Source: Candidatus Baldrarchaeum yapensis (GTDB lineage: Archaea > Asgardarchaeota > Baldrarchaeia > Baldrarchaeales > Baldrarchaeaceae). Taken from it: DNA of 32,000 nucleotides. Where the stretch lies: positions 30,001 to 62,000 of the forward strand of contig JAEOSH010000002.1 in the NCBI GenBank assembly GCA_016840465.1. Reading direction: 5' to 3'. Below, one piece after another: positions 2,444-28,191 of this stretch (its first letter is position 1; each line of letters opens with the position of its first letter). The notes beneath the pieces are model-generated. The model made no database searches. It saw nothing but the letters and a program-made list of their open reading frames with translations, and was not told the DNA's origin. Position numbers and translations under genes: made by a program.

Positions 2444-2531
2444 TGGTAGCCCGGCCGGGATTCGAACCCGGGTCCCCAGCTTTCTTCGGGGCTCCAAAGG
2501 CTGGGAGGCTTGGCCGCTACCCCACCGGGCT
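2444..2531 (-). tRNA. tRNA-Gln (anticodon TTG) with a 12-nt intron and encoded CCA
   Basis: Reverse complement folds as a cloverleaf: acceptor AGCCCGG/CCGGGCT, D arm GGGT/GCCT, anticodon stem CCAGC/GCTGG around CT-TTG-G, T arm CCGGG-TTCGAAT-CCCGG, then ACCA. The 88 nt equal 76 plus 12. Confidence 0.97.
2482..2493 (-). other. tRNA intron at canonical position 37/38 (AGCCCCGAAGAA)
   Basis: Central helix CUUU/GAAG with bulges GG^A and AA^A; removal restores a 7-nt anticodon loop. Confidence 0.9.
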
Positions 2532-22974: not shown

Positions 22975-24771
22975 TTATTTCCGAGAACTCCTTTTTATTT
23001 TCATTATCTCGTTGAGTAACTCCAGTTCTTCGGATGATAATTCCTCAGAGAACTTTAATTTTAACGTTCTGATGTGTGGCTCCGGCACGTCGACATAAAT
23101 TATATCTCCTTCTTTTATGTGCCTACCGACTATGGCTTCCCTTATAGATATTGCAACTTCCATACCCGCGGTTGCTTCCCGAAGACTCTGACCTGCCTGT
23201 TGAATTTGCATTATTTGACCTATATATTTTCCACTTGATGTCATAAGGGGATACCTAGGTCGTATTCTTCCGACGAGTACCTTAACCCCCACGATTGCCG
23301 GCTTACTTCTCCTAAACACATAACCCGGCAGTATCATTATTTTTGCCGGCATTATTATCTTTTCTAATGTCAATTTCTTTTCTTCTTCTCGCTTCTTCGT
23401 AACCCAATTATCGTAATCCTCAAGTAGTTTGTAGATTATGTTGCTCCAAAATATTGGAATGTCATATTTTTTAGCTTCCTCTTCGGCGTCCGGCAAAATT
23501 TTTACGTTAAAAGCTAGTATTGCTGCTCGATATGGATCCTTTTCCATGACAACTACCGCTTCCATGACATCACGCTTTGATACATCGCCAATACCTGCAA
23601 GTCTTATTGGAACATCATGTCTCCGTAAGTAATTTACTAGCGCTTCTAGAGATCCCAAGGTATCCGCTTTTAAAACAACACCAACCTTATCTGTCGAAAT
23701 TATGATCTTCTTGACTTCCTTCTCAATCTCGTCAACTACGGATTGTAACTCTGATTCATCCCAGACCGCACGCATTGGAGAGCCAGCAACAGCGCCTTCG
23801 AGATTTGGAGCGACAAGTTTTACTCCTGCGGCTGCCACCACTTCATCTACCGGTGTGAACTTCTCACGAGGATCCCTTATTTCATCTAAAGGCTTTGGTA
23901 AAAGTATAGCACGAAGTTTTGTGACAATAGGTCCCTCTATTCCTCCTATTACGATGATATCATCCTTTCTCAGTACTCCATCGTAGATTATCGCATTCAC
24001 TGTTAAACCGAGTCCGAGTTCTTCCTTTACCTCGAGAATAACTCCTTTTGCCGGCCCTTCCTTAAATTCGAGTTGTTTTTTCATGTAGCGCTGAGTCAGA
24101 CCGGCGAGTACAAGTAAAAGTTCAGGTATCCCCTCCCCCGTTTTTGCACTTGTTGGGACGATGGCAACTGTTTTTGAGAAATCAGTAACTCTATCAAACC
24201 TTTCAGCGCTGAACCCGACGGCACTCAAGGACCCGACTATTTGGTATATTTTTTCGTCTAAGTACCTCCTGACGGCTGGATCTTGCAGTTTTATTGATTC
24301 TGTAAAGTATTGTGTGGGTCCGGGTCTCCACCCGGGGATCCTGTCTATTTTGTTTGCGGCAACTAAAAATGGAACTCGCCTTTCCTTCAAGATGTCTATG
24401 CATTCCCATGTTTGAGCTTGGAATCCCTCCATTATATCAACTACTAGTATTGCGAAGTCTGCAGCGGCTCCGCCCCTAACTCTAAGGTTGTAAAATGCCT
24501 CATGCCCTGGAGTATCTATGACTAGGATTCCTGGGATTGTCAACTTCACTTTATACATTTCCATGAGTTTGCCACAAATTTTCTCAATTACGGGGGATGG
24601 AAAGAAGGATGCACCAATGTGCTGGGTCTAGCATCAGGCCGTGGAAAACGGCCTGATTATGCCCCCAGCCTCTCTTTGTTGGACGGCCGTCCCACGGATT
24701 TTATCAAGCAATGAGGTCTTTCCATGATCTATATGTCCCAAAACAACGCATATGGGCTGCCTTAGACGCAT
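22975..24771 (-). CDS. infB: Translation initiation factor aIF5B (IF-2), two exons: 24771-24658 and 24627-22975; 588 aa after splicing
   Basis: Exon 1 (38 codons, SD GGTGAGGTGA) encodes [38 protein letters not shown]. Exon 2 begins [10 protein letters not shown] and carries DTPGHE, NKID and SAKTGEG. The 30 nt between them contain in-frame TGA and TAG. Confidence 0.95.
24628..24657 (-). other. BHB-type mRNA intron in infB (30 nt)
   Basis: GCUGGG/CCCAGC 6-bp exon helix, GGCA/UGCU central helix, bulges UA^A and AG^A, 9-bp intron stem UCAGGCCGU/ACGGCCUGA with loop UUUCC. Confidence 0.92.
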
Positions 24772-27146: not shown

Positions 27147-27773
27147 TTACGTTTGCACAGGCTTTTGAGGTATTATTTTCGTCTCAAATTCCTCTACTGG
27201 GATTGGAAGATCTCCATCGGGTGGTATTGCTCCACGTTCGCGTAGGATTTGTCTCGCAAGTAACCAATAGATGAGAGACAACGCTTTTCTTCCCTTATTA
27301 TTCGTGGGAATCACAAGATCTATGTATGCAGTATTCGCATCCGTGTCGCAGAGGGCAACTATTGGGATTCTGGCATCAACGGCTTCTTGAACTGCTTGCC
27401 TATCTGCTCTCGGATCCGTAATTATTATCACGTCTGCCTCAACGTAATATTTGGAAGACGGGTTTGTTAAAGTCCCCGGAATAAACCTTCCGGGGATGGC
27501 TATTGCCCCGACAACTTCAGCGAACTTTTTAACCGGTCTTTGTCCATACTGCCTTGCAGACACTGCAAGAATCTTTGATGGCTCAAATCTTGATAGGAAT
27601 TTCGCTGCAATACGGATTCTTTCATCGGTTTTTCTGACATCAAGCACATACAGACCGTCTGGACGTGTTCGATATATGTACTGTGCCATATATCCGGTCT
27701 TTATTTTCGTCCCTATGTGGACTCCTGCTGCAAGATATTGATCCAAAGGAACTAACAGAGTATCGCTACTCAT
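27147..27773 (-). CDS. rps2: 30S ribosomal protein S2
   Basis: [37 protein letters not shown]. Confidence 0.97.
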
Positions 27774-28036
27774 ATTCCATCTCCTCTTCAGCTTCTTCCT
27801 CCCTGGCAGGCGGGAAACTGAACTTCAATACTTCATCTATCAACTCCACATGGCTCAATAACATTCTTCTACAACAATATCTTTTTAATCCTAAATCATC
27901 AAGGACTTTTTTCGGGTCTTCACCACTTTCAACTCTTTTCTTGAACTCTTCCCATTTATCAGCAATAACCTTACCACATGTAAAGCTTCCCGCCACCGAC
28001 GGAAATTCGTCGGTGGTATCGGACCGGGATTATCAT
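27766..28036 (-). CDS. rpoN: RNA polymerase subunit Rpo10 (RpoN), two exons: 28036-28018 and 27986-27766; 79 aa after splicing
   Basis: Exon 1 ATG ATA ATC CCG GTC CGA T (SD AGGGTGA) plus exon 2 GC TTT ACA TGT GGT AAG gives MIIPVRCFTCGK. It continues with [17 protein letters not shown] and ends in an acidic tail. Confidence 0.95.
27987..28017 (-). other. BHB-type mRNA intron in rpoN (31 nt)
   Basis: UCCG/CGGG central helix, bulges AU^A and AA^G, 9-bp intron stem CCACCGACG/CGUCGGUGG with loop AAUUUC, and a short 2-bp exon helix (G-C, G.U). Confidence 0.9.
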
Positions 28037-28191
28037 ATCAGAGTCACCCTAACACCGTCGATGCATCTGATTCACCTCGATATTCAGCATTGATGTTTTC
28101 AAAATTCCCTCTTTTAATCTTCCTTTTGAGTTCATGCATCTGGAATACTGATATCAGGTTCGGGAAATTAAATGAGCATGGTGGTGAGTTA

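Follow-up and report, generated by a model that had tools for sequence, protein, structure and literature searches.

A predicted bulge-helix-bulge intron splits the first zinc-ligand codon of the RNA polymerase gene rpoN in an order of Asgard archaea

Introduction

How can a cell make the zinc-binding RNA polymerase subunit RpoN when the reading frame of its rpoN gene breaks inside the seventh codon? The question is raised by the window analyzed here, i.e., the whole stretch of 32,000 nucleotides from Candidatus Baldrarchaeum yapensis, for which the initial annotation proposed that a 31-nt bulge-helix-bulge (BHB) intron has to be spliced out of the rpoN transcript. The splicing endonuclease EndA is known to splice archaeal cbf5 pre-mRNA via a relaxed BHB motif, and in the literature covered by our search, cbf5 is the only archaeal coding gene for which such splicing has been shown experimentally (PMC2738675, PMC10485636). 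In the reviewed literature, the endonuclease-processed archaeal mRNAs are those of cbf5 and HVO_1309, and more of them probably remain to be found (PMC10485636). The Asgard intron census deals with tRNA genes only (bioRxiv 10.64898/2026.10.13.758758). Our literature search retrieved no report of a BHB intron in rpoN and no paper linking this archaeal class with introns.

Results

Excision of the insert restores a full-length RpoN

The split gene lies on the minus strand, starts with ATG at 28036, and consists of two exons (28036-28018 and 27986-27766) separated by a 31-nt insert (28017-27987). Read 5' to 3' on that strand, its beginning is ATG ATA ATC CCG GTC CGA T / 31-nt insert / GC TTT ACA TGT GGT AAG. 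Exon 1 (28018..28036) thus provides ATG, codons 2 to 6 (MIIPVR together with the start) and the first base, T, of the Cys7 codon, and exon 2 (27766..27986) extends from the GC of this codon to the stop codon TAG at 27768-27766. A Shine-Dalgarno-like GGTGA can be read 7 nt upstream of the ATG (28044..28048, minus strand); the relatives described below have GAGGTG at the same spacing from their rpoN start codon, GTG. At its 3' end, rpoN overlaps the start of rps2 (ATG 27773-27771) by 8 nt. Downstream of rpoN on the minus strand are rps2 and an isopentenyl-phosphate-kinase-like gene, and neither rpoK nor eno was found between rpoN and rps2.

If the insert is kept in, it shifts the frame, and translation from exon 1 ends after 21 residues at a TAA (27971..27973, minus strand). 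Its removal yields a 240-nt open reading frame (ORF) for a 79-aa protein that starts MIIPVRCFTCGK, with the predicted intron (27987..28017) in phase 1 and a predicted junction, obtained by excision at the canonical cuts, that joins GTCCGAT to GCTTTACA. This spliced product matches the Pfam RNA_pol_N profile (PF01194) over positions 1-58/58 with 118.7 bits, as opposed to positions 7-58 only and 97.9 bits for the annotated 76-aa GTG ORF; the full-length match, including C7, C10, C44, and C45, is attained only once the insert is excised. Solved Rpo10/RpoN/Rpb10 chains likewise align to the spliced product from residue 1 (best E value, 1.6e-32). The protein also has an acidic C-terminal tail (window 27766-27800), which is missing from the solved homologues. 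In Rpb10/RpoN structures, the CxxC residues 7 and 10 and the CC residues 44 and 45 are the four zinc ligands, Cys7 being the first of them. Since the insert splits the Cys7 codon, the break falls inside the codon of the first ligand.

The genome, which is 96% complete in 100 contigs, has a single copy of rpoN. The 76-aa ORF begins at a GTG (27994..27996) located within the intron stem and lacks Cys7. This truncated RpoN (P0001) is the only form of this organism in a collection of 5.8 billion proteins; a query with the 79-aa spliced product did not find an RpoN of this organism with the spliced N terminus there. The minus-strand sequence confirms each element of the initial annotation, i.e., the 31-nt frameshifting insert at its stated coordinates, the 21-residue unspliced frame, the GTG start of the 76-aa ORF inside the intron, and the phase 1 restoration of the Cys codon.

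The insert folds into a relaxed BHB motif

On the minus strand, positions 27984..28025 can form a complete BHB motif, including a 2-bp adjacent outer helix, and this motif is the minimum free energy (MFE) structure in both 44-nt and 91-nt contexts. The central 4-bp helix pairs UCCG of exon 1 (28020..28023; codons Val5/Arg6) with CGGG at the 3' end of the intron (27989..27992). As in pre-tRNA, each of the two 3-nt bulges sits 3' of its central-helix strand: AUA on the 5' side (28017..28019), which is invariant in all nine distinct intron-bearing sequences compared below, and AAG on the 3' side (27986..27988), which reads AAG in seven of these sequences and AGG in two. The intron hairpin (27993..28016) has a 9-bp stem (28016-28008/28001-27993), Watson-Crick throughout, and a 6-nt loop (28007-28002), with an A.C mismatch at the top of the stem in the window. 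From the canonical EndA rule, we infer cuts between 28018 and 28017 (AU^A) and between 27987 and 27986 (AA^G). Each cut follows the second base of its bulge, and together they excise precisely these 31 nt and rebuild the Cys7 codon UGC. The UCCG/CGGG helix, the AUA and AAG bulges, and the 9-bp stem are all present as the initial annotation had drawn them. The Rfam search returned no family match for the insert region.

Taken alone, a BHB motif is no rarity in this genome. A strict version (4-bp helix, two 3-nt bulges, stem of at least 9 bp, and outer helix of at least 2 bp, with G-U allowed) occurred about 18 times per 4.5 Mb scanned in shuffled genomes and 37 times in the real one. Its chance frequency is about 4e-6 per position and strand, i.e., 0.26 per window, and evidence must come from position and comparison. 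On both grounds, the motif is not there by chance, as its predicted cuts are exact for the frame and for the Cys codon and eight further distinct sequences have it at this very position.

Two other foldings of the region were considered. In a 62-nt context, the MFE structure of the window prefers a shifted register, UCCCG/CGGGA, which destroys the 5' bulge (z-score, -2.6). This register is conserved in 84% of cells of the nine-sequence alignment, with one pair broken in five of the nine sequences; being less conserved than the BHB register, it was set aside in favor of the latter. A pairing between exon 1 and exon 2 (AUAAUC/GGUUAU) is visible in the window alone and is not retained by relatives.

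Same-site inserts in relatives preserve the fold

The order to which this archaeon belongs comprises five species in two families. All five rpoN genes match the Pfam model only from position 7, and all carry an insert at the identical site, which in the four relatives reads GTCCGAT, A...AA, and GCTTTAC across exon 1, insert, and exon 2. Metagenome contigs added four further sequences, i.e., two distinct variants from JGI and two from ENA. The DNA pattern scan of metagenome contigs was unspecific, with rpoN in only 4 of the 120 stretches returned; from JGI it recovered the two distinct variants plus two identical copies. The ENA contigs (ERZ584659 and ERZ27227321; L252:1-83 and L253:128-210), which came to light through the protein search, encode an rpoN that is 87% identical to that of the window and has its own variant of the 31-nt intron, in which C-G replaces the A.C at the stem top, the helix strand is CGGA, and the 3' bulge is AGG. 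This gene represents a second member of the window's family, which has one species in the genome collection.

Across the nine distinct sequences, the insert measures 31, 31, 31, 42, 41, 41, 43, 41, and 41 nt. These lengths span all three residues modulo 3, and the exon-1 frame runs into a stop codon in every one of the nine. With such varied lengths and in-frame stops, only exact excision yields the conserved protein in all nine sequences. Splicing in silico indeed restores RpoN in the homologues too, despite their differing insert lengths, and exon 1 (MIIPVR plus T) is retained in 9/9, synonymous changes notwithstanding. The comparison among relatives that the initial annotation had suggested thus uncovered a same-site insert in all five species and in four metagenome sequences.

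The pairing is conserved along with the site. In the nine-sequence alignment, 97.5% of cells are paired, versus 38 to 46% in controls with slid partners. In ten pairs, both bases differ between sequences with pairing kept, nine of these pairs being among the 13 aligned pairs of the intron stem, although the nine sequences amount to about three or four clades and independent compensatory events are fewer than the cell counts suggest. The intron-side helix is 9 to 14 bp long and contains these nine covarying pairs. The central helix is paired in 9/9 sequences, with a U-G in the window where the other eight have U-A; as the two bases of a pair are never both exchanged in this helix, the evidence for its register is conservation rather than covariation. 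RNAalifold independently recovers both the central helix and the intron stem.

A side observation concerns gene calling. In L033, L034, L118, and L144, all with 41-nt inserts, the frame of exon 2, when followed backwards, meets no stop codon in the insert or in exon 1 before it reaches a GTG in the Shine-Dalgarno region. In these relatives, gene callers may report an N-terminally extended, wrong RpoN.

Exon pairing around a weak adjacent helix

The exon-side helix that adjoins the bulges is short, with 1 to 2 bp and 89% of cells paired in the nine sequences. In the window, it consists of G28025-C27985 (a G-C pair) and G28024-U27984 (a G-U pair), and in two relatives of 1 bp. On the basis of these sequences, the rpoN motif is a relaxed BHB, as anticipated in the initial annotation from the 2-bp outer helix.

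RNAalifold also predicts a distal helix between the exons, 8 nt outside the adjacent pairs, in which UCCC of exon 1 (28026..28029; Ile3/Pro4 codons) faces GGUA of exon 2 (27972..27975; Gly11/Lys12 codons), both on the minus strand. The helix is 4 bp long, with consensus UYCC/GGRA, and three of its four pairs are dictated by the protein sequence. The one free pair, formed by two synonymous third positions, is C-G in three sequences, U-A in three, and A-U in two, and the window alone among the nine has a mismatch there. Among 97 intronless rpoN genes, only 31% have complementary bases at these two positions. This covariation suggests, without proving it, that the exons help close the 3' bulge, and the distal helix probably offsets the weakness of the adjacent one.

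Among the genomes compared, the insert is confined to one order

Elsewhere, rpoN appears intact at this site. In 56 genomes from 19 other Asgard families, rpoN matches start at model position 1 to 3, and the best 150 of 400 Asgard genome matches start at position 1 or 2. The near-universal N terminus, M[IV]IP[VI]RCFTCG, is uninterrupted in about 100 other archaeal rpoN loci. Three weak rpoN matches (G067, G115, and G264) proved to be genes cut at contig ends and not split genes. Among the genomes and loci compared, the insert, as judged by these matches, is present in every known member of the order and absent elsewhere.

The genome encodes the predicted splicing enzymes

Two ORFs of 193 and 195 aa, at G000 C56:16106-16687 and C53:3852-4439, respectively, have an EndA domain. 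The 193-aa protein aligns without gaps to the catalytic subunit of the Aeropyrum pernix enzyme (3P1Z_B; E value, 1.5e-47), and this alignment covers the loop region and the histidine of GIDHAPF, which the 195-aa paralogue lacks. By sequence, the pair is a predicted (alpha-beta)2 type EndA made of a catalytic and a noncatalytic paralogue. Asgard archaea have (alpha-beta)2 EndA, whose L1 loop confers broad specificity, and this arrangement has been linked to cleavage of relaxed motifs (PMC5829648), as with cbf5 (PMC10485636). The ligase RtcB is encoded as well (E value, 2e-183).

At least four further coding genes appear to be split

A genome scan for compact BHB motifs, combined with reading of the junction peptides and Pfam searches with the separate exon halves, identified at least four further coding genes split by BHB motifs, i.e., infB, pcm, porC, and a radical-SAM gene. 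In infB (aIF5B), a 30-nt intron with a 6-bp outer helix (24628-24657 of the window, minus strand) interrupts a gene whose exon 1 covers positions 4-30 and exon 2 positions 69-184 of the GTP_EFTU profile; its removal restores GGITQHIG within ...REAGGI/TQHIG.... The 32-nt intron of pcm has an 11-bp stem (G000 C78:18122-18153, L249:1123-1154, plus strand), the exons match positions 2-59 and 61-208 of the PCMT profile, and the codon at the junction encodes the His of QTISAPHMVA. In porC, for pyruvate:ferredoxin oxidoreductase gamma, a 28-nt intron (G000 C56:106639-106666, L251, minus strand) separates matches to positions 1-123 and 129-173 of the POR profile. The radical-SAM intron, of 29 nt (G000 C66:13809-13837, L250, minus strand), is located inside the CNFTCPWC cluster motif; exon 2 begins at position 14 of the Radical_SAM profile, and exon 1 alone gave no Pfam match.

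These four introns resemble that of rpoN in having 28 to 32 nt, a GC-rich perfect stem of 8 to 11 bp, and A-rich 3-nt bulges, and in each case a conserved motif is restored exactly, as in rpoN. The five introns show no mutual sequence similarity, and their adjacent outer helices differ, with 2 bp in rpoN, 3 to 6 bp in infB, porC, and the radical-SAM gene, and 1 bp in pcm. On this evidence, at least five coding genes of the genome, rpoN among them, are predicted to need the same operation. A mobile-element origin of the rpoN intron was discarded, since the genome contains no further copy of it.

An ORF-only census of 3,030 compact BHB hits found that long ORFs are restored at the exact cut no more often than with the 3' cut shifted by 1 to 2 nt, nor more often than with random deletions. 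The ORF criterion cannot separate real from chance motifs, so real cases were recognized by homology of the exon halves.

Two more observations were made along the way. A BHB-like element (helix CGCG/UGUG, 8-bp stem GCCGAAGU...) occurs three times, at G000 C86:17148-17175, C94:15856-15883, and C1:82585-82612, with near-identical flanks in the three copies. The window also contains a tRNA-Gly(CCC) gene (2444-2531, minus strand) with an encoded CCA end, whose length of 88 nt marks it as intron bearing.

Discussion

Our analysis supports the reading of the rpoN insert as a BHB intron by four lines of evidence, namely sequence, homology, comparative covariation, and the presence of the splicing enzymes. 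Very probably, then, rpoN/rpo10, a single-copy gene, has a genuine archaeal BHB (tRNA-type) intron in its pre-mRNA, which EndA would cut and RtcB would join so that only the spliced mRNA gives zinc-binding RpoN. The predicted pathway would start with EndA cleavage two bases into each bulge (AU^A and AA^G) and continue with ligation of the exons by RtcB and release of the 31-nt intron, probably as a circle. Translation of the spliced mRNA would be the only source of zinc-binding RpoN.

Other readings of the locus have to be weighed against this one. The insert might be retained, with exon 1 as a relic and a truncated RpoN without Cys7 as the functional product, translated from a start inside the insert such as the GTG at 27996. 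The 76-aa ORF does exist, still scores 97.9 bits against PF01194, and is the form found in public protein collections, and every relative has an in-frame ATG, GTG, or TTG within its insert. However, these internal starts vary in codon and position from lineage to lineage, fall within the stem of the hairpin, and lack a Shine-Dalgarno sequence, while the start codon of exon 1, its Shine-Dalgarno sequence, and its coding capacity for MIIPVR plus T are kept in 9/9 sequences. The truncated product would furthermore lack one of four invariant zinc ligands in a family in which the CxxC is near-universal, and a relic would not be expected to keep its BHB through nine compensatory changes of the stem. 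We therefore regard a functional truncated RpoN as very unlikely. Slightly less credit still is given to the possibility that EndA cleaves the transcript with no or rare religation, so that the site would mainly act as a cleavage/decay switch limiting rpoN-rps2 expression. Yeast TSEN does cleave some mRNAs for decay rather than splicing (PMC10485636), and proximity to the start codon would be fitting for a control element. Yet the cell needs RpoN and has no other intact copy of the gene, RtcB is present, and ligation at the predicted cuts restores both the frame and the Cys codon in all lineages, a precision that decay does not need; a pure decay switch is thus very unlikely.

Bypassing of the insert during translation, either by ribosome hopping or by programmed frameshifting over the hairpin, has a superficial likeness to phage T4 gene 60 in its favor, as a stable hairpin comes right after the break and a stop codon is nearby. 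The Cys codon, however, is split U/GC and could not be read by any hop, matched take-off and landing codons are absent, and no single frameshift rule fits inserts of 31, 41, 42, and 43 nt, which cover all three frames. What is conserved are the features proper to a BHB, i.e., the 3-nt bulges and the 4-bp helix, and we consider recoding extremely improbable. An assembly or sequencing artifact, or a decaying pseudogene, has hardly any likelihood either. The genome is indeed a metagenome-assembled draft of 100 contigs, but two assemblies built from other data sets contain the same DNA (0 mismatches in 295 nt), and four further genomes as well as four further metagenome contigs have homologous inserts. 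The gene is moreover the sole rpoN copy, both of its exons are under clear purifying selection, and it overlaps rps2 as expected of a translated gene.

If, as we favor, the insert is a BHB intron that is spliced, the consequences would reach the transcription machinery. The role of RpoN in the D-L-N-P assembly platform of RNA polymerase is well established. Given this role, the sole rpoN copy, and the lack of an alternative translation product with Cys7, we infer that assembly of RNA polymerase depends on mRNA splicing, and polymerase biogenesis in this lineage would rely on the tRNA splicing machinery. Timing may matter too. The 5' strand of the central helix occupies positions +14 to +17 from the AUG, inside the footprint of the initiating ribosome, and for this reason an initiating ribosome and the BHB should exclude each other. 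Folding and cleavage of the BHB would probably precede translation initiation on the same transcript.

A broader and much more tentative view, which we hold to be possible but doubtful, is that this deep-branching Asgard order keeps a population of tRNA-type micro-introns in essential mRNAs, with at least five cases here in functions as diverse as RNA polymerase, translation initiation, protein repair, and central metabolism, and that rpoN transcripts are spliced before they are translated. Either transcription and translation would then be kinetically or spatially separated, or a checkpoint would link the biogenesis of the polymerase to EndA/RtcB activity. If true, such a micro-intron population and such splicing ahead of translation would concern a close prokaryotic relative of eukaryotes.

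Judging from the comparisons above, the rpoN intron is a real BHB mRNA intron whose predicted mechanism is already known and whose host gene is new. With it, mRNA processing by the tRNA endonuclease would come to include a core subunit of RNA polymerase and the Asgard phylum. The case also has a bearing on annotation, as pipelines call either a truncated RpoN without the zinc ligand or, in some relatives, an extended ORF, and similar errors probably hide other split genes. As a compact 31-nt element near a start codon, this intron offers a testable substrate for the order of splicing and coupled translation in archaea.

The closest known counterpart is the cbf5 intron of Crenarchaeota (Aeropyrum, Sulfolobus, and Desulfurococcales; Yokobori et al. 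2009, PMC2738675). Both are short relaxed BHB introns in information-processing coding genes, both occur in hosts with (alpha-beta)2 EndA, both are clade restricted and look like lineage-specific gains, and in both cases annotation pipelines mis-call the gene. The cbf5 host belongs to the Thermoproteota, whereas that of rpoN is an Asgard archaeon, and splicing of cbf5 was demonstrated by RT-PCR and in vitro cleavage, whereas the rpoN case is known from DNA sequence. Unlike the cbf5 intron, that of rpoN lies in codon 7, 19 nt after the AUG, splits a zinc-ligand codon, and is flanked by a predicted distal exon-exon helix. HVO_1309 of Haloferax volcanii (Schwarz et al. 2020, PMC7714728; PMC10485636) shares with rpoN the status of an mRNA substrate recognized by the splicing endonuclease through a BHB, predicted in the case of rpoN. 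It differs in that it was found experimentally, in a host with alpha2 EndA, and nor is it described as interrupting a conserved codon in the gene for an essential subunit of the polymerase. In structure, the rpoN intron is akin to the tRNA introns at noncanonical positions in archaea with broad-specificity EndA, which combine a 4-bp helix and 3-nt bulges with a short hairpin intron of 11 to 45 nt (PMC5829648; bioRxiv 10.64898/2026.10.13.758758); the same enzymes are predicted to process both, and the Asgard phylum is rich in such tRNA introns. What sets the rpoN intron apart from them is its host, a translated mRNA, in which excision has to be exact to the base for the frame to be kept and would compete with ribosomes.
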